Shown: in pieces, positions 3,428 through 40,601 of the stretch
Position numbering within the stretch: the first letter of the stretch is position 1
Layout: each line of letters opens with the position of its first letter
Source of the DNA: a phage
Sequence record: PZ402305.1
DNA: 64,000 nucleotides
Direction: 5' to 3' (one strand)
Position numbers and translations under genes: made by a program
Notes under the pieces: model-generated
The model's database searches: none
Told to the model about the DNA's origin: nothing
What the model saw: the letters and a program-made list of their open reading frames with translations, nothing else

Positions 3428-3718
3428 ATGAAAAAGATGATCGCAGTAGTTGCCCTGGTTGTTGGTATTAACGCGCCTGTAATGGCTAATGATTTGCCTG
3501 AATCCATCGCGTTAACCGATATCAACGCGGTAAACCGGATCGGCGTTAATTATCGCCTATGCCTTGCCGCTAAAACTTTCCAGGACGGCACGACAGAATA
3601 CCACGGATTCGAGGGTGTCCGGTGCGGTGAGCTTGCACGCGACCTTAAGGAAGATCCAGACCTTGAGGCCATACCGATGACCGTAAACGGTAAAGCTTAC
3701 GTAAACCGCCAACAATGA
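3428..3718 (+). CDS. hypothetical secreted protein (signal peptide)
   Basis: N-terminus MKKMIAVVALVVGINAPVMA resembles a Sec signal peptide. Confidence 0.5.
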   Translation: MKKMIAVVALVVGINAPVMANDLPESIALTDINAVNRIGVNYRLCLAAKTFQDGTTEYHGFEGVRCGELARDLKEDPDLEAIPMTVNGKAYVNRQQ

Positions 3719-3729
3719 GAAAGGTAATC

Positions 3730-3957
3730 ATGACAATGGGGATCATAGTAGCAACGCTGGCGCTGATCCCCTTCCTGGTTGAATATGTGCTGATTAGTGT
3801 TGTCCTGGTAGTCAGTGACTTATTGGAAACGGTTGGCACCTGGGAGCAGGGGAAGATAATCACCGGACGACCCCGCTATATATTGATAGCTAACATCTAT
3901 CAAACAACAAAACATCAAAGAGATAAACTATCAAATCTTTACAATCCTACCTATTGA
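3730..3957 (+). CDS. hypothetical membrane protein (75 aa)
   Basis: Internal ATG after GAAAGG RBS; two hydrophobic segments. Confidence 0.45.
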   Translation: MTMGIIVATLALIPFLVEYVLISVVLVVSDLLETVGTWEQGKIITGRPRYILIANIYQTTKHQRDKLSNLYNPTY

Positions 3958-4012
3958 CACCGGATCACGCTTACATTATCATTTATCACGTAGGGCGGGA
4001 ATGTTTCCCGCC
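3954..4012 (+). promoter_or_regulatory. PeSL-like cassette 7: TTGACA-N16-TTATCA plus GTAGGGCGGGAAtgtTTCCCGCC
   Basis: Precedes ATG at 4031. Confidence 0.5.
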
Positions 4013-15979: not shown

Positions 15980-16651
15980 ATGAAAAAGTTTGTTGTTTAC
16001 AGTCGTCTTTCTAAACAGAAAAAAGGTGAGGCACAATATGGTATGGAGAGCCAAGAGAATGATATCCGTTACTTCTTAGACTCTGTGCCTGATGCGGAAG
16101 TTATTGGTCAATTTTCTGAATACTATTCGGGTAAGGGCGATTGGAAGCAACGTAAGGAACTGGTTAAAGCGGTTGAAATGTGTAAAGCTACCGGAGCAAC
16201 TTTATTGGTAGCTAAAGTTGACCGCTTGGGTCGTAATAACGCCTCCGTAGCAACTCTTCTAGAAATGATTGATGTTAAGATAGCCATCATGCCAGACGCA
16301 GATAAAATGGTTATACAGCTTCTGTCTGTTCTGGCTGAACAAGAAGTTAGAGGTATTGCTGATCGTATTAAAAAGGGTCTTGCTGTAGCAAAAAGCAAAG
16401 GTGTTTTATTAGGCAGTGCCAATCCTAAAACTGCCGCTGCACGTAGAAAAGGAAAAATGGAATACAACTCTGTTAAAGCAGACGCTTTTGCAGAGACATT
16501 CCGTGAACGCTTGGAGATCCTTAGAGATTTAAATACACCTTACAAAACTATTGCTGAAAAATTCAATAGTAAGAAAATAGCAACAGCACGTGGTGGTAAA
16601 TGGGATGCTAAAACTGTTTCTCGTTTGTGTGCCAGACTGAACATTAAATAG
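15980..16651 (+). CDS. serine recombinase (resolvase/invertase family) with C-terminal HTH
   Basis: VVYSRLSKQ (catalytic Ser motif), LLVAKVDRLGRN, C-terminal TIAEKFN...ARGGKW; TTGACA-N17-TAAAGT promoter upstream. Confidence 0.6.
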   Translation: MKKFVVYSRLSKQKKGEAQYGMESQENDIRYFLDSVPDAEVIGQFSEYYSGKGDWKQRKELVKAVEMCKATGATLLVAKVDRLGRNNASVATLLEMIDVKIAIMPDADKMVIQLLSVLAEQEVRGIADRIKKGLAVAKSKGVLLGSANPKTAAARRKGKMEYNSVKADAFAETFRERLEILRDLNTPYKTIAEKFNSKKIATARGGKWDAKTVSRLCARLNIK

Positions 16652-17059
16652 GAGAGGATATGAAACAAGAAAATGAACCTGTAGATCACTTAATCATGCT
16701 GTCAGCCCTTTTTGCCGGATGGGACGTATTTTTTGAAAATTTGTTCAATTCTGCTACAGATGGTTCCGATTTTATGCGCCAGTTTAAACGACGAACTGTT
16801 GAGGACTATGCTTTCTATTCAGGTCGGATTGAAAAAGGTTACGAAGATACAAATACAACACTCACCATTAAAGTTTTAGATGTGATGTTTAGTGTTATAG
16901 ATGCTATCGACGAAAGTCTTCCGATCCTAGATAATTGTAATACGAAAGTCTATGTTTACAAAATAGCTCGTGCTTATGTGTCTGCAAACAGTTGTCTTCT
17001 TTCCACCCAGATTGCCGTGAACAATCTTGCCAACTTGTTTGATGAAGGAGAAACTTTTT

Positions 17060-33490: not shown

Positions 33491-33535
33491 TATTAATCTC
33501 CTATGTTTAAGAAATGCCCCCGAAGGGGCAGTTTG

Positions 33536-34228
33536 TTAAATAGCGGTTCCTTCGAAATCCGCCACATTTACGAGATTAATATTTTCAGATTTAGAAGTCA
33601 AGTTGTTTTCTGCAACAGATTTTTCTTCAGTATCCGCCTCGTTACCTGCCACGTTACGAGGTTCTTCTTCACCGTAGGGATTACCGAATTTCAAAAGATT
33701 GATCAATTCTTCTTTGGAGAAGTTTTCTAAATCATCGTCTGTTAATTCAATAATCTCGTCTTGTTCTTCAATAAATGTTTCACCACCAGAAAAAGCATCT
33801 CGCTTTTTAGCTACTTCCATAGCCTGTTCTGGTGTTGCCCCTGCATCAAGAGCAGCTAAAGCAAAGTCTGACCCACTCCCTACTGCATAATATTCTTCAT
33901 CAATCGGATATGCACGTGTTGGGTTGTTACCCTCGTGCAGGAAAATACGTCCGTCTGGATGAACAACAAGTGCAATAAACTCTTCATCTTCTTTGTCTGG
34001 ATCAGAGTGAATCATCAAACCAGGGACAGCATCACGTGCTGCTTCGCACTGTAGATTTTGTTCAAACCATTGAAAGAAAGAAAGCACGGAGGTCAGACGA
34101 CCAGCACCACCTACAAGGTAATCTCCAATTTTTCGGACCTTTTTGAAATTAATAGAATCTACACGTCCACCAAAAGTTACCTTACCGTCACTCAAAATCT
34201 TATTTTTGGTTGCAATAATTGTCGTCAC
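33536..34228 (-). CDS. hslV: HslV-like (proteasome beta-type Ntn) peptidase with acidic C-terminal extension
   Basis: N-terminal MTTIIATKN...GG..D (Thr2 nucleophile), YAVGSGSDFALAAL; about 75-residue acidic tail. Confidence 0.55.
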   Translation of the reverse strand: MTTIIATKNKILSDGKVTFGGRVDSINFKKVRKIGDYLVGGAGRLTSVLSFFQWFEQNLQCEAARDAVPGLMIHSDPDKEDEEFIALVVHPDGRIFLHEGNNPTRAYPIDEEYYAVGSGSDFALAALDAGATPEQAMEVAKKRDAFSGGETFIEEQDEIIELTDDDLENFSKEELINLLKFGNPYGEEEPRNVAGNEADTEEKSVAENNLTSKSENINLVNVADFEGTAI

Positions 34229-34731
34229 TATTCTTCCTCCTCTGTTAATGTTTTAAGAACCGCTTTCCCGCCATTCACATATTTGCAGATGTATTCTATC
34301 GCACGTAGTGTCTCTTTGTCAACAAAAATTTGATCAGACGTTGCGAGCGGGTTATTAAGAAGATCACTGCAATCACGAACAAGCAGTGCTTTCTTATTAA
34401 ACAAATTACTTAAGAACAGTAACTTCGCCTCTTCTTCTGTTATGTGCAGAAGGCTAGGATCGGAGCCAGCTATTCCTATTATACAATCAAACAAGCTTTC
34501 TTTACTATCAGAAAGTTCTTGAAAATGGTTTAAAAGCCAATCTTCTCCTAGACACCAACATTTAAACATTTCCAGCTTATCTCGGAGGGTCATATTCTCT
34601 AAAGTAAGAGCAATCTCTTTTTCAATATGGTTTACACAAATTTGACGAAATTCGTTAGGTTTTACGAGTCCCGTTTGATAGCACTCATCTATACCGCTTC
34701 TTCCGATAGCTATTGTTGCTACACCCATCAA
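34228..34731 (-). CDS. hypothetical protein (167 aa)
   Basis: Track ORF. Confidence 0.45.
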   Translation of the reverse strand: MMGVATIAIGRSGIDECYQTGLVKPNEFRQICVNHIEKEIALTLENMTLRDKLEMFKCWCLGEDWLLNHFQELSDSKESLFDCIIGIAGSDPSLLHITEEEAKLLFLSNLFNKKALLVRDCSDLLNNPLATSDQIFVDKETLRAIEYICKYVNGGKAVLKTLTEEEE

Positions 34732-34763: not shown

Positions 34764-35522
34764 TTAAATAAACACTTCAGTAATCAGTTTAGACAAACGT
34801 CCACGTTTATTATCGTCCGTTGTCAGTTCAACGTATCCAATAAAATCTACAATTGGCTCACGAACACCTTCTTCATTTTCTGGATATAAAAGTTCCAAAA
34901 TTTGATGCAGACCATTGCTACGTTTTTTAATTGCATATGTCTGGCGAACATCGCCTAATACAATAACATGCGTATTAATACCTGCACGTTCAATAAGAAG
35001 TTTAAGTGTTTCTGTTGACATAAGTTGTGCTTCGTCAATAATGACGATTGTATTATCCAGGGTGGCCCCCAACAAATAGTTAGGAATATTCAATTCGATC
35101 TTACCTGATCCAATATCGTTTTCCAATTTGTTGGCTGTCATGAATTGCTGGAAAATACGTTTTGTAGATTCATAGTGTGCTGCTAGTTTATCTGTTTTAT
35201 CTCCAGACAAGAAACCAATCTGGTCATCTCCGACTTCAGTAGGGTTCTTGATAAAAAGTAGTTTACGGAAGTCTCCTGAACGAAGCATCTGCAAAGCTTT
35301 CCATAAAGCAACAGAGGTTTTACCAGTCCCTGCCGGAGCATTTACAACAGTCAGATCATTCCAAATCATGCTTTGAACAATCTTATTTTGGTCCCCTTCA
35401 GGCATAAATTCATCTAAACGGTAATCGTCATTACCTACCGCTTTTGCTGCATAACGGCTTTCAATCTTTGCTGAATTAGCCAGTTTCTGCCGTTGTGTTT
35501 TAGCTGCGGTTTTATTTCCCAT
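34764..35522 (-). CDS. phoH: PhoH-like ATPase
   Basis: Walker A NAPAGTGKTS, Walker B VIIDEAQ; start moved to ATG after AAGGAG. Confidence 0.8.
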   Translation of the reverse strand: MGNKTAAKTQRQKLANSAKIESRYAAKAVGNDDYRLDEFMPEGDQNKIVQSMIWNDLTVVNAPAGTGKTSVALWKALQMLRSGDFRKLLFIKNPTEVGDDQIGFLSGDKTDKLAAHYESTKRIFQQFMTANKLENDIGSGKIELNIPNYLLGATLDNTIVIIDEAQLMSTETLKLLIERAGINTHVIVLGDVRQTYAIKKRSNGLHQILELLYPENEEGVREPIVDFIGYVELTTDDNKRGRLSKLITEVFI

Positions 35523-35559
35523 AGTAGCACTCCTTTTAGAAGGGGCCGAAGCCCCTTTA

Positions 35560-36060
35560 TTAGTTGTAAGCATCTAAAGTTCCAGAAGTCAGAACTTTAA
35601 TTACTCGTTCAGCACGGTTTGGCGTCTGGCTATACCATCGGCTTTTACGCATGTTTTTACCTGCTTGAGTATAATATGCATTGCTGATTAAAGTCAAGCT
35701 ATTTTGAAACCCTTCAGCACCTTTTAATCCCAACTGGAAAACCATGTTGATTATTCCCAATTTACGAGTATCACTAACCTTATCATAGATTGGTGATAAG
35801 ATAGCACTGTTTTTTATGTCTCTCTTCACTTTTGCAACATCGTCAGCAAAGATTTGACGGGCTTCTTTTTCTGTGATAACTCCATTAGTCTTACGACCAA
35901 GAAGATTATCTAAGATTTGAATAGCCTTTGCTTTATCTTTTATTTTAGTCAGAAGGTGTCCTATGCCGACTGTCCAATAACCAAGATGGTCTTGATAAAC
36001 AGTAAGCTTCAGTCCTTCATCGACTCGTAGCATATCGAACTCATCTACTACTTTAGCCAT
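35560..36060 (-). CDS. endolysin, T4 lysozyme-like (GH24 muramidase)
   Basis: MLRVDEGLKLTVYQDHLGYWTVGIGH and RWYSQTPNRAERV align with the T4 lysozyme catalytic region. Confidence 0.85.
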   Translation of the reverse strand: MAKVVDEFDMLRVDEGLKLTVYQDHLGYWTVGIGHLLTKIKDKAKAIQILDNLLGRKTNGVITEKEARQIFADDVAKVKRDIKNSAILSPIYDKVSDTRKLGIINMVFQLGLKGAEGFQNSLTLISNAYYTQAGKNMRKSRWYSQTPNRAERVIKVLTSGTLDAYN

Positions 36061-36222: not shown

Positions 36223-36483
36223 TTACTCCGCAATTTGAGCCATGAGATCACGCAGTTCGGTAAAACCGCCTACGTATGTTACCTCCCCGTTCACTTCGGA
36301 CAGAATTTGTGGAAATGTGCGTGGAGGAACTCCGGTAAGATCAACAACTGTTTTAGTCATTGATTCTAAATCATAGTCTTGATCAAGACTTAAATATTCA
36401 AACTGTTTATTGCGCATGGTTAATAGTTGTTTTGACATTTCACAAAATTGACAGTTAGGTTTACCAAAAATTACAAATTCCAT
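36223..36483 (-). CDS. glutaredoxin/thioredoxin-like protein
   Basis: 86 aa with CQFC redox motif; directly precedes rml and nrd genes. Confidence 0.6.
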   Translation of the reverse strand: MEFVIFGKPNCQFCEMSKQLLTMRNKQFEYLSLDQDYDLESMTKTVVDLTGVPPRTFPQILSEVNGEVTYVGGFTELRDLMAQIAE

Positions 36484-37325
36484 TACCTCTCCTTATTAAG
36501 TAATACTGCTAAAGACTGTTCAATACCTTTATTTAAATCTGATTTTGTAAGATAGTGACTGGTTACTAGTTGTGACTTCACCGGACGTGCTGCTGGAGCA
36601 TTATAGGTTGAAGCTGATACCGCCGATATCTTAACAGGTTCTGGCATCTGTGTCAAGATCTTTTCCGCAAACTCCGCCCAAGAAATAAGATGGCTTCCTG
36701 CAAAATGGTAAGTCTTAACAGACCTTGACCAACCTGTTTTTAATACTTCAAAAATAGCTTCTGCTAAATCTGGAGCATATGTTGGACAAGAGAACTGATC
36801 AGCAACAATAATAAAATCACGTTGTCCATCATTATAGCGAGACAACATGGTTTTTAGAAAGTTATTTCCAAATTCGCTATATACCGAGGCTGTTCGAATA
36901 ATATATGCATTTGGGTTAACTCCTCGCACCATTTTTTCACCAAGTTCTTTCGTATACCCATAATTGTTTATTGGGTTAGGTGTAGTATCTTCAAAAATAG
37001 GATGAGAATAATTAAAAATATAGTCTGTAGAAATATGCACAAAATCAATTTTAAGTTTGCTGCACACTGCCGCAATATTTGCAGGTCCATACGCATTAAC
37101 AGCCAAAGCAGTAGCAAAATCATGTTCTGCTTTATCTACAGCCGTATAAGCGGCGCAATTAATAACACCATCTACATAATCTTCAATAATAGCGTTTCGC
37201 ACAGCTTCAAAATTTGTAATATCTACACGTTCTTTAGGATAAATTAAAGATACATTTGAAGGAGCCACTTTACGTAAAGCTTGTCCCAGTTGTCCATTAC
37301 CGCCCAATACCAGATATGTTAGCAT
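36483..37325 (-). CDS. rmlD: dTDP-4-dehydrorhamnose reductase
   Basis: N-terminal VLGGNGQLG Rossmann motif; last gene of the rml set. Confidence 0.75.
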   Translation of the reverse strand: MLTYLVLGGNGQLGQALRKVAPSNVSLIYPKERVDITNFEAVRNAIIEDYVDGVINCAAYTAVDKAEHDFATALAVNAYGPANIAAVCSKLKIDFVHISTDYIFNYSHPIFEDTTPNPINNYGYTKELGEKMVRGVNPNAYIIRTASVYSEFGNNFLKTMLSRYNDGQRDFIIVADQFSCPTYAPDLAEAIFEVLKTGWSRSVKTYHFAGSHLISWAEFAEKILTQMPEPVKISAVSASTYNAPAARPVKSQLVTSHYLTKSDLNKGIEQSLAVLLNKER

Positions 37326-37885
37326 ACACCCTCGCTACGTAACTGTTGAAAAGATTTAGCCATTGCATCTTTTGTTGATAGAATAGGTTTAAAACCTTCG
37401 TCAAAAATCATATCGAAGCCCCAATCGATCCCTATATCAGGATCATCCCAACGTAAACTTTGTTCACTAGAAGGGTCGTATGGAGTTGTGCATTTGTATT
37501 CAAAGATAGCATCCATACTCAAAACTATAAAACCATGAGCCAAACCAGGCGGAAGCCAAAACTGCGTATGGTGTCGTGCACGAAGAACAACACCGTCCCA
37601 AGCACCGTAAGTTGGACTATCTTTACGTAAATCTACAGCGAAATCCAATACTTCCCCACTTACACAACGAACTAGCTTACCTTGCGGGTTATTTGTTTGA
37701 AAGTGCATTCCTCGCAAAACACCGAAGTTTGATTTAGACATGTTATCTTGAACGAAAGTTTGTCTACCAATAATATCTTCGTATTTTTGTTCATTATATG
37801 TTTCTAGAAAGAAACCACGATCATCTTTATAAACGTCTGGTTTGATAATTACCGCACCTTCAATTTTTGTTTTTTCTACTTTCAT
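37319..37885 (-). CDS. rmlC: dTDP-4-dehydrorhamnose 3,5-epimerase
   Basis: [14 protein letters not shown], cupin-like; ATGA overlap with rmlA stop. Confidence 0.8.
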
Positions 37886-38760
37886 TTTCTCTCCGCTAAT
37901 TTGAGTAGGTATTGCCCGTACTCTGTTTTCTTCAGTGAGTTTCCATGATACACCAAAGTCTCTAAAGAAATCCACCCTTTTTTGAAAGCAATTTCTTCCA
38001 GGCACGCAATCTTCAATCCTTGACAGTTCTCAATAGTCTGCACGAATTGACCAGCTTCCATCAGACTGGCGTGTGTTCCTGTGTCAAGCCAAGTAAATCC
38101 TCGTCCGAGAACTTCCACTTGTAACTTCCTGTCTTCTAGGTAGCTGCGATTGATATCAGTGATCTCCAGTTCTCCACGCGCGGAAGGGGTTACTTCTAAT
38201 GCACGTTGAATAACAGAGTTATCATAGAAATACAAACCTGTGACAGCATAATCTGATTTAGGATTTTCAGGTTTCTCTTCAATAGAAATAGCTTGACGAT
38301 TACTCCCAAATTCAACCACACCGAATCGTTCAGGATCTTTCACCAAATACCCGAAAATACAAGCTCCGCCCCAAACATCTACCATCTCACTGGCGTTAAT
38401 CAGTAGTTTACCAAAGCTTTGTCCGAAGAATAGGTTGTCACCTAAAATAAGAGCAACAGAGTCTTCTCCGATAAAATCTTTACCTATGATGAAAGCTTCC
38501 GCAAGACCTCGTGGCTCGGATTGGATTGCGTAAGTGAGTTTTATCCCAAACATAGATCCATCTCCGAGAAGATACTCAAAGTCTTCCTGATCGCCTGGTG
38601 TGGTGATTATTAAAATATCCTTAATGTCAGCCAACATCAATACCGATAAAGGGTAGTAGATCATGGGTTTGTCATACACAGGGAGTAATTGCTTGCTCAC
38701 ACTGCGTGTTACTGGATGAAGGCGGGTTCCACTTCCTCCCGCCAAAATAATACCTTTCAT
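37882..38760 (-). CDS. rmlA: glucose-1-phosphate thymidylyltransferase
   Basis: [18 protein letters not shown]...[16 protein letters not shown]. Confidence 0.9.
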
Positions 38761-38768
38761 AACCCTCC

Positions 38769-39761
38769 TTAAATTTTCTCACTCCACCATTGAGGGTTGT
38801 TTAAGTACCATTCAATCGTTGAGTAGAGATCTTGTTCAAATGTAGAGTTTGCACTCCAACCCAGTTCAGACTCTATTTTAGAAGGATTGATTTCATAACG
38901 CAAGTCATGTCCTTTACGATCTTCAACAAAAGTTATCAAGTTGGAAGAAGGGTAGGTTCCTGCCTCTGGATGTACAGCATCCATGTAGTCACAAACCATA
39001 TAGATGATCTCCATATTGGTTTTGGGATTACGTGTTCCAACATTATACGTTTGACCTGGTTCTCCACCTGTTGCCACTTGAAGAATAGCTCGCGCATGAT
39101 CCTCAACAAAAAGCCAGTCTCGCACCTGATCGCCTTTACCATACACCGGAATCTCTTTATTCGTCAAGATACTTGTGATGATTTTTGGGATCAGCTTTTC
39201 TGGATGTTGATAAGGCCCAAAGTTATTGGAGCAGTTGGTTATCACAACAGGCAAATCGTAGGTACGGTGCCAAGCTTTCACAAGATGGTCAGATGCTGCC
39301 TTAGACGCGCTGTACGGGCTTGAAGGGGCATAAGCTGTCTCTTCAGTAAAGGGAACGCCAGAGTCTGCCATATCGCCGTACACTTCGTCTGTGGAGACGT
39401 GTACGAACATCTTCAGTTTATTTTTTGGGAGGAGCCTTGCAGCTTCCAATAAATTGTATGTACCAATAATATTGGAGTCGATGAAAACTCGTGGATTCTT
39501 GATAGAATTATCCACATGACTTTCTGCCGCTAAGTGAATGATGAAGTCAGGATTGCACTCTACTACTAAACTTTTGACCTGGGTTTCGTTTGCCAAATCT
39601 GTTATGCTTAGTTTAACGTGAGTGATATCGCCTACATTCTCAATGTCTGCTGCATAGCCCATCTTATCAACGACAAAAACTTCGTTATTGGGATCTTGAC
39701 AAAGAGAGCGCACCACGGCACTCCCAATAAAACCAAGACCACCTGTTACCAGATAGCGCAT
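38769..39761 (-). CDS. rmlB: dTDP-glucose 4,6-dehydratase
   Basis: [15 protein letters not shown] and SDR YxxxK-type core; 330 aa. Confidence 0.9.
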
Positions 39762-39770
39762 CAGTTCTCC

Positions 39771-40097
39771 TTACCAAACATGTTGAGAAATAATAGTTTC
39801 CGTTTTAATGTTATATTTTTCAAGTAGCTTTGCATAGGCTTCTTTTGCATTCTCATTCAATTGCTCAAGATCTACAGCTATGCTTCCTTCTCCGCCTTCT
39901 AAATCAAGGCCATATATGCAATAAGACTCATCCGCATCGTAGAAAGGAGAGATGCGGCTTAAGTCAAGACCTTCTTGTAAGAACCAGTTAAAATCTCCGT
40001 CAAATTCTTCTTCAATTCTAGGATCTTCTCCTACAGCCTCTTCCCACTTATTAAAAGGTGCACCCTGTAACATACGCCATTCGATATCAATACCCAT
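39771..40097 (-). CDS. hypothetical acidic protein (108 aa)
   Basis: Track ORF. Confidence 0.45.
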   Translation of the reverse strand: MGIDIEWRMLQGAPFNKWEEAVGEDPRIEEEFDGDFNWFLQEGLDLSRISPFYDADESYCIYGLDLEGGEGSIAVDLEQLNENAKEAYAKLLEKYNIKTETIISQHVW

Positions 40098-40601
40098 TTT
40101 TCATCTCCTCCTCTTCTTGAGCAGCTTTAATAATTGCTTCATAAATATCGTAAGCAATGCCTCCACAACATCTAGCTTCGAAAGCTATTGCTTCTGCAAT
40201 GTGATCTGTTAATTCTCGTGGAATGCGAACATACTCTTTTTCACTCTCCATCTTCTACCTCCAACCCTTCTTTTTCAAAGATTACTACTCGTCCTTCACC
40301 ATGACAATTCAGGCAAGGAAATGTTACCATAATTTCCACTTCCATCTGTCCAGTCCCACCGCACACAGGACAAAAAATAAGTTTTTCAGCCATTATTCCT
40401 CCTTAATTATTTCAAACTTGGCAACACCATTTACAATAATATGACCACAAGACATAACTCCTAGCCAAGGATCGCCGTTTTTCTTCGGGCGTTTACCGAA
40501 TACATCACAAAAACCATTCTTCATTTCGGAGGCTTCATAAGAAGCCTCTTTGTCAAAAACGTCTTTGAATGTGTCGATTATACCAACACATCTCAAAATC
40601 A

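Follow-up and report, generated by a model that had tools for sequence, protein, structure and literature searches.

The window analyzed here is a stretch of 64,000 nt of phage DNA (sequence record PZ402305.1). The gene under study lies on its minus strand and encodes a protein of 230 amino acids (aa) related to the peptidase HslV and to proteasome subunits (Table 1). The window comes from a Phapecoctavirus (Stephanstirmvirinae): the region matches Escherichia phage SKA64 at 100% identity and phAPEC8 at 99.5%. In phAPEC8 the gene is gp175 and bears the RefSeq name "peptidase HslV family." Judged from alignments and a predicted structure, its product is a phage-type proteasome homologue that has the full catalytic set and lacks helix H2, and it is not an HslV orthologue.

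Table 1. Features of the peptidase locus (positions are those of the window)
Feature	Position	Strand	Basis or remark
Proteasome-like peptidase gene (phAPEC8 gp175)	33536..34228	-	230 aa, GTG start, TAA stop at 33536-33538
GTG start codon	34226..34228	-	Direct sequence reading
Shine-Dalgarno sequence GGAGGA, 6 nt 5' of the GTG	34235..34240	-	Direct sequence reading
Thr2 codon, predicted N-terminal nucleophile after removal of the initiator Met	34223..34225	-	Invariance and HslV alignment
Proteasome-like N-terminal nucleophile core, residues 1-155	33764..34228	-	Homology, alignment, AlphaFold2 model, Foldseek
Loop replacing H2 and acidic pore-loop equivalent, residues 66-84, DAVPGLMIHSDPDKEDEEF (7 acidic, 1 basic)	33977..34033	-	DSSP, HslV alignment, clade-wide acidity
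Proximal tail, residues 156-186: acidic linker QDEIIE (156-161) and conserved motif LTDDDLENFSKEELINLLKFGNPYG (162-186)	33671..33763	-	AlphaFold2 model, family comparison
Distal tail, residues 187-230, predicted disordered (11 acidic, 3 basic)	33539..33670	-	AlphaFold2 model, identity comparison
gp174, helical, 166-167 aa, conserved neighbor of the tailed peptidase	34228..34731	-	Synteny, homology, structure prediction
PhoH-like P-loop ATPase gene, conserved upstream neighbor	34764..35573	-	Family match, synteny
Terminator-like hairpin UGCCCC-UUCG-GGGGCA followed by UUUCUU	33515..33530	-	Fold z = -2.7
Near-consensus sigma-70-like promoter, TTGACA, 18-nt spacer, TAGAAT (11/12)	34293..34322	-	Sequence match

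The open reading frame (ORF) called by the first-pass annotation is real, and its start is secure. The GTG is the earliest possible start after an in-frame stop codon, it follows a Shine-Dalgarno sequence, and its G at position 34228 is also the last letter of the TAG stop codon of the upstream ORF. The encoded N terminus reads MTTIIATKNK, and the 48 homologues that were aligned all have M1-T2-T3-I4. The start mapping therefore keeps the N-terminal threonine to which that annotation had pointed. The 1-nt overlap of start and stop codons indicates in addition that the peptidase is translationally coupled to the upstream gene.

Homology searches returned matches to peptidase-type N-terminal nucleophile (Ntn) families and none to a nonpeptidase family. 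PHROG 1040, "peptidase HslV family," was matched with an E value of 1.6e-63 over query residues 1 to 229 (profile positions 14 to 247 of 277), and this profile itself contains tail positions. The Pfam Proteasome model (PF00227) gave 25.6 bits, just over its cutoff of 22.4. Homologues of the peptidase were found in 234 phage records, with Escherichia, Klebsiella, Vibrio, Aeromonas, Caulobacter, Rhizobium, Shewanella, and others as hosts. No second proteasome-like ORF was found in the window, and a scan of representative bacterial genomes with the single protein found no genuine bacterial locus. The sole match in that scan was a 425-bp contig of a Lysobacteraceae assembly (JAPMLR010000072.1), which is 100% identical to the peptidase gene and probably represents carried-over phage DNA. 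Among the phage records, those labeled as Campylobacter phages B15, A145, and A150, Acinetobacter phage vB_AbaM_ABPW7, and Klebsiella phage ZCKP1 are here near-identical (mostly at least 99%) to Stephanstirmvirinae phages of E. coli, and their host labels look doubtful.

The catalytic core and its relation to HslV

The catalytic residues of the proteasome superfamily are retained. T2, D14, K30, and G117-S118-G119 are invariant among the 48 homologues and align to the catalytic residues of E. coli HslV, with T2 corresponding to Thr1; the catalytic Asp is D14 in SDGK, aligned to GDGQ of HslV. The Gly motif of the oxyanion hole, GGAG at residues 40 to 43, is at least 90% conserved. D144, G148, and G149 are nearly invariant within R143-D-A-F-S-G-G149, a sequence that resembles the RD..SGG of proteasome beta subunits, whose Asp166 and Ser169 we take to be the equivalents. 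Of the motifs by which the N terminus had been called HslV-like, Thr2, GGRVD (residues 20 to 24), and GSGS (residues 117 to 120) are all present, but GG..D is not catalytic.

The homology to HslV and proteasome subunits spans residues 1 to about 160. An AlphaFold2 (AF2) monomer model was built from the 48-sequence alignment, with a mean predicted local distance difference test score (pLDDT) of 86.7, and its secondary structure was assigned by DSSP. The model contains helices H1 (residues 45 to 67), H3 (120 to 128), and H4 (133 to 143), and the last core strand covers residues 151 to 155. At the place of H2 in HslV, residues 68 to 83 (AVPGLMIHSDPDKEDE) form a loop, and no helix is found between H1 and the strand at residues 84 to 89. 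This part of the model is predicted with confidence, as the mean pLDDT of 10-residue blocks is 83 to 93 over residues 61 to 90, and the loop standing in for H2 contains Pro and Gly.

Several comparisons bear on the name HslV, and they place the protein in the superfamily but not among HslV orthologues. First, the HslV equivalog models NF003964 and TIGR03692 (NCBIfam) gave 32.2 and 31.4 bits against cutoffs of 137 and 157.75, a shortfall of more than 100 bits in each case. Second, the identity to E. coli HslV is 27% in the alignment; the E. coli sequence used agrees with PDB entries 5ji3 and 1e94 essentially throughout, with one conservative Asp/Glu difference. Third, the core is 35 to 39% identical (74 to 82 bits) to phage-type proteins of 139 to 152 aa, compared to 27% and 42 bits for E. 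coli HslV. Over its full length, the phage protein has a net charge of -24 and an isoelectric point (pI) of 4.35; the pI of E. coli HslV is 5.94. Among solved structures, HslV chains score highest by sequence (T. maritima HslV, E = 4.9e-9). In Foldseek searches with the model, HslV, the bacterial protein BPH, and 20S beta subunits were all matched with a probability of 1.0 and a template modeling (TM) score to the target of 0.65 to 0.68, and BPH ranked second among solved structures. Bare Caulobacter phage proteins of 131 to 146 aa match the model better, with TM scores of 0.80 to 0.85 and root mean square deviations of 2.2 to 5.0 Å. With HslV the protein has in common the fold, Thr1, Asp17, Lys33, the serine of GSG, and the absence of a propeptide (as in HslV of the Gram-negative type), and it differs in a first hairpin that is four residues shorter, in RDAFSGG, which is nearer to proteasome beta subunits, and in its tail, which HslV lacks.

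Pairing with host HslU, which the first-pass annotation had proposed as one mode of action, is unlikely according to the alignment and the structure prediction. In HslV, H2 carries the HslU-docking pocket residues A79 and K80 (PMC6429459), and a basic cluster of R86, R89, and K90 lies at the pore entrance (PMC5777263). In the alignment, HSD--PDKEDEEF of the phage protein stands opposite AKDWRTDRMLRKL of HslV, which includes both the pocket residues and the basic cluster, and the three basic residues align to K79, E82, and E83 inside D76-P-D-K-E-D-E-E83, which reverses the charge relative to HslV. The acidic pore-loop region is kept across the whole tail-bearing clade. Lys28 of HslV, which we take to be a contact for the HslU C terminus, aligns to Ser25 of the phage protein. 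No HslU- or ClpX-like gene is present in the complete phAPEC8 annotation. It is the combination of the missed equivalog cutoffs, the loss of H2, the reversed pore charge, and the absence of a linked unfoldase gene that makes HslU pairing unlikely.

For these reasons it also seems improbable that the protein is a functional HslV replacement that docks on the host HslU hexamer and redirects ATP-dependent degradation, with the acidic tail modulating the docking. HslU is encoded by the host E. coli, HslV chains are the best PDB sequence matches, and the Thr1/Asp/Lys/Ser set is common to both proteins. The H1 pocket positions F54 and F57 of HslV (PMC6429459) stay hydrophobic in the phage protein (L49 and F52). 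Against this stand the equivalog scores (32 and 31 bits against 137 and 158), the loop at H2, the charge reversal in the R86/R89/K90 region, and the greater nearness of the core to bare phage homologues than to HslV. Moreover, phages of Caulobacter, Rhizobium, Vibrio, and Aeromonas carry members of the family with identical divergent features.

The single classical AAA ATPase annotated in phAPEC8, gp014 (379 aa), is encoded outside the window (39005 to 40144 of the examined phAPEC8 segment; PF00004, 29.9 bits; PHROG 2376) and is weakly similar to Rix7 and VCP domains. The idea that it is a dedicated unfoldase was rejected, as it lies far off in the genome and its occurrence among phages does not follow that of the peptidase. 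Many Gram-positive phages that have no such peptidase carry a member of the gp014 family, and peptidase-bearing Vibrio, Caulobacter, and Rhizobium phages lack one.

Of the known systems with which the protein was compared, four share features with it besides HslV. A 2021 bioinformatic survey by Fuchs, Alva, and Lupas described the families PPH, RPC, and AAH (PMC8665760). PPH, the phage proteasome homologue, has about 140 residues and no helix H2; the survey names the loss of H2 as the structural hallmark of both PPH and RPC (PMC8665760). Like PPH, the query is phage encoded, has a proteasome-like Ntn fold with Thr1 right after Met, has no propeptide, keeps the catalytic residues, and lacks H2, and its nearest tail-less relatives are phage proteins of 131 to 152 aa. 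Unlike PPH, it has 230 residues with a tail of about 75 residues that includes a two-helix motif, and an acidic loop of 16 residues stands where H2 would be. RPC is related to PPH, lacks H2, carries a C-terminal extension, and was found in Proteobacteria only as a divergent cluster of 79 sequences (PMC8665760). Compared by description, RPC and the query have in common the lack of H2, the relationship to PPH, and a C-terminal addition that matches no known structure; they differ in that RPC is reported from Proteobacteria genomes only and the query is phage borne. Literature searches turned up no work on the function of a phage HslV-like or PPH protein.

BPH bears five Asp/Glu residues in a row on its acidic pore loop, its HslU-interface residues are unconserved, and it has no partner unfoldase (PMC5777263). 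It resembles the phage protein in its derivation from HslV, the acidic run in the pore loop, the absence of a known unfoldase partner, and the absence of a propeptide. It differs in keeping H2, in its longer pore loop, in having no C-terminal tail, and in being a bacterial protein that forms tetradecamers, whereas the phage protein is known here from a monomer model. The resemblance to BPH is thus functional and does not amount to family membership. With 20S beta subunits the phage protein shares the PF00227 match above threshold and RD..SGG, and local matches to beta5 cover query residues 113 to 166; unlike them, it lacks a propeptide, an alpha-ring partner, and H2, and its core is much smaller.

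Anatomy of the C-terminal tail

The final 70 to 75 residues have no HslV counterpart. The first-pass annotation had described about 75 acidic residues that bacterial HslV lacks; the absence from bacterial HslV was borne out, but the composition was overstated, as only about 28% of the residues are Asp or Glu. Residues 151 to 230 contain 22 Asp/Glu and 5 Lys/Arg (net charge, -17), and the pI of residues 156 to 230 is 4.05. In the model, the proximal motif forms two short helices (residues 164 to 169 and 172 to 181; pLDDT of about 93), and from residue 191 the mean pLDDT of 10-residue blocks in the distal tail is 47 to 58.

When 1.84 billion representatives were searched exhaustively with a profile, 11,194 matched at an E value of ≤1e-3 and 64 at ≤1e-30. 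The 64 are almost all tail bearing and mostly 183 to 350 aa long, and they are followed by many proteins of 137 to 155 aa with E values from 1e-31 to 1e-25. The anatomy of the tail was compared by inspecting about 120 family members, in which the linker after the last strand is acidic. The linker leads into a family motif of approximately L-T-x-E-x-L-x-x-M-S-K-E-E-L-L-x-L-L-F-G, of which LTDDDLENFSKEELINLLKFG is the query version. This motif is found in most of the tail-bearing clusters checked (about 60), and it persists in Aeromonas and Vibrio homologues with no more than about 35% core identity. Beyond it, the sequence differs by lineage, and the net charge is negative in every tail, from -1 to -35. 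Close relatives are identical to the query at 77% of the core, 50% of the proximal motif, and 10% of the distal tail. This gradient argues that the proximal tail is an old functional element and that the distal tail is kept in its acidic composition only. The proposal that the tail signals altered partner binding did not hold up in that form, because the proximal part is an old conserved feature of the family and only the distal acidic part is lineage specific. In addition, tail-bearing viral relatives in BFVD superpose on the model over 185 to 203 columns, reaching the region of the tail helices, which weakly suggests that these predicted helices hold a consistent position among relatives.

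Searches for known domains in the tail gave little. When the tails of 37 family members were scanned on their own against Pfam, the query tail had no match. A profile of the proximal motif found nothing meaningful among PDB sequences (best E = 0.043, a generic MSRDEL helix in a Rieske subunit), the sole match to PDB sequences of a profile of the distal motif of relatives was a designed repeat protein artifact, and hhalign of the proximal against the distal motif gave a probability of 2%. The C terminus as a mimic of the HslU activating peptide or of a ClpX tag was also rejected, as C termini are unconserved even among 70% identical homologues.

The distal ends of relatives are of several kinds. 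Many end in L..IA..L.I.YAHNIG.EKL..RI within their C-terminal approximately 40 residues, a motif with subthreshold matches to the HeH clan (Rho_N, E = 0.0016; Ish1, E = 0.0012; SAP_new25) and absent from the query. Others carry Cys-rich or beta-rich modules. In one subgroup, the C-terminal 100 to 220 residues contain a different module, with CxxC...CxxC-like spacing in some members and a Trp-rich end (…KWRLHNA or …WWKVDDE). The query tail carries neither a HeH-like nor a Cys-rich or beta-rich module.

Proposed function

The reading that we favor, with a probability of roughly 0.55, is that the protein is an unfoldase-independent proteasome homologue of the phage type, in which a compact N-terminal-threonine hydrolase core without H2 is joined to a tail. 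Host methionine aminopeptidase would remove Met1 and expose the Thr nucleophile, by analogy with BPH, for which Met removal exposing Thr was seen by mass spectrometry (PMC5777263). The subunits would then assemble into a ring-shaped self-compartmentalizing particle, which during infection may cleave polypeptides that are unfolded or short, and probably basic, with no need for host HslU or ATP. Because the proteasome fold directs its C termini outward from the ring, the tails would surround it as an acidic fringe. In it the conserved helical motif could serve as a docking or packing element, and the variable distal tail, specific to the lineage, could act as an adaptor or a charge shield and in this way govern access or the choice of partner or substrate. 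The location of the gene in a nucleotide-metabolism block (see below) points to an auxiliary, nonstructural function.

Ring composition might vary within the family. In Aeromonas phage 2L372D, a second PHROG 1040 member of 183 aa that starts with M-T-C-I-I-A lies directly upstream of the 294-aa tailed homologue (3432 to 3983 of the examined segment), and such tandem paralogues could form hetero-oligomeric rings in some phages.

Four points weigh against the unfoldase-independent reading. First, BPH, the only characterized unfoldase-independent relative, showed no activity on standard peptide substrates or casein (PMC5777263), and since it was inert on these, "peptidase" is a reading of conserved residues. 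Second, ring assembly and the packing of the tail helices are extrapolated from a monomer model. Third, the case against HslU pairing draws on a 27% identity alignment and on the role of one residue. Finally, PPH is defined at about 140 residues, and the assignment of the query to that clade rests on features and proxies.

The inertness of BPH also bears on whether the protein is a protease in vivo at all. It may instead be another type of Ntn enzyme, such as a connectase-type ligase/transpeptidase or an amidase, or a latent, inactive scaffold whose functional part is the acidic tail, for example as a nucleic acid mimic or decoy. Connectase, a ligase, belongs to the superfamily (PMC8665760), and BPH did not degrade the substrates with which it was tried (PMC5777263). 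The phage protein is very acidic overall, and acidity is the sole conserved property of the distal tail. This explanation is nonetheless unlikely. The complete proteasomal catalytic set, including RD..SGG, is invariant over a deep family, which argues for retained catalysis of the proteasomal type, and, as the bare relatives of 131 to 152 aa have no tail, the core function of the family cannot lie there.

Gene neighborhood and the pairing with gp174

The peptidase sits in a long leftward block that encodes NrdA, NrdB, glutaredoxin, dTDP-sugar enzymes, lysozyme, PhoH, gp174, and the peptidase. The order NrdA-NrdB-glutaredoxin-lysozyme-PhoH-(150- to 170-aa protein)-peptidase recurs in metagenomic phages whose peptidase is 48 to 59% identical, and there the 150- to 170-aa protein directly upstream of the peptidase is a homologue of gp174 (30 to 37% identity, E of about 1e-26). 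The model of gp174 has a pLDDT of 92.8, and many of its residues are invariant, including C17, C121, and R119; it has no Pfam, NCBIfam, or PDB fold match. The idea that gp174 is a cryptic proteasome-like subunit was rejected, as it is helical and has no family or fold match. At 60% identity or above, gp174 and the peptidase were each found in 134 phage records. PhoH also lies upstream of the peptidase homologue in Aeromonas and Vibrio phages. BLAST searches with the genes upstream of the Aeromonas and Vibrio homologues found no gp174 homologue, and none was apparent beside the Caulobacter homologue.

A natural deletion in phage VEcB (NC_052663) affects PhoH, gp174, and the peptidase. A 267-aa ORF (2165 to 2968 of the examined segment) joins the N-terminal part of PhoH to peptidase residues 63 to the end, so that gp174 and the catalytic Thr are removed, yet the phage is viable; RefSeq still names the product "peptidase HslV family." This means that the module is dispensable for growth in culture.

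These observations raise the possibility, doubtful at present, that the peptidase is the catalytic part of a phage module in which gp174 acts as a regulator, adaptor, or assembly factor and the PhoH-like ATPase might supply energy. The overlapping stop and start codons, the pairing with gp174 in divergent phages, the recurrent PhoH-gp174-peptidase order, the equal record counts, the confident fold of gp174, and the single VEcB deletion that took parts of all three genes are consistent with such a module. However, the adjacency of peptidase and gp174 may only mirror common descent, because the whole NrdAB-glutaredoxin-lysozyme-PhoH block is syntenic, and gp174 was not found upstream of the Aeromonas and Vibrio homologues and not apparent near the Caulobacter one. 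Further, gp174 matched neither a family nor a fold, PhoH belongs with the helicase-like P-loop proteins and not with the AAA+ unfoldases, and PhoH is widespread in phages without such a peptidase.

The neighborhood likewise argues against a capsid (prohead) maturation protease, a role for which the one favorable point is that no RefSeq gene is annotated as prohead protease. The head genes are roughly 30 kb away from the peptidase gene, which belongs to the nucleotide-metabolism block, and VEcB is viable without the catalytic half. Beside the portal gene, outside the window, the ORF phAPEC8 gp117 matches Peptidase_S78_2/XkdF (E = 1.4e-11) and head maturation protease PHROGs. As gp117 is a separate candidate of the S78/XkdF type, the proteasome-like protein is most probably not the head protease, and a prohead role is effectively refuted. 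In RefSeq, gp117 (16487 to 16966 of another examined phAPEC8 segment) is called a "DNA methyltransferase"; it is probably the prohead protease, misannotated.

Returning to the favored unfoldase-independent homologue, the most far-reaching extension of it would be that the tail-bearing homologues (about 60 clusters at 50% identity) constitute a distinct viral degradation machine. This machine would be an unfoldase-independent ring with an acidic pore, whose two-helix motif and interchangeable distal modules recruit specific, probably basic, host or defense proteins, and gp174 and PhoH might complete a three-gene module. We regard this as a speculative and rather improbable proposal.

The gene family was already annotated and was described in 2021, so that the feature itself is unsurprising to a specialist; the anatomy of the tail and the pairing with gp174 are modest additions. 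Phage proteasome homologues have been cataloged bioinformatically, and none has a known substrate, partner, or phenotype. The present peptidase is a practical experimental entry point because it comes from well-sampled, easily grown E. coli phages that are used in therapy studies, and knockouts are feasible because the module is dispensable in culture. The analysis argues against a hijack of host HslU, points to a BPH-like acidic pore, resolves the tail into an old conserved helical motif and a replaceable module, and identifies gp174 as a conserved upstream candidate partner.

Some minor features of the locus may be added. The terminator-like hairpin lies 5 nt past the peptidase stop codon, just ahead of the Shine-Dalgarno sequence and ATG of the next gene. 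Some 65 nt before the peptidase start, within the 3' end of gp174, is the promoter-like site, which overlaps codons of invariant gp174 residues and so may be a coding by-product. In the SKA64 record, PhoH appears as a "CRISPR-associated helicase" and a second one of these genes as a "tyrosine 2,3-aminomutase." The dTDP-sugar pathway occupies approximately 36483..39761 on the minus strand and comprises a glucose-1-phosphate thymidylyltransferase, a dTDP-4-dehydrorhamnose 3,5-epimerase, and two nucleotide-sugar epimerases, and four glycosyltransferase genes are found elsewhere in the phage genome.

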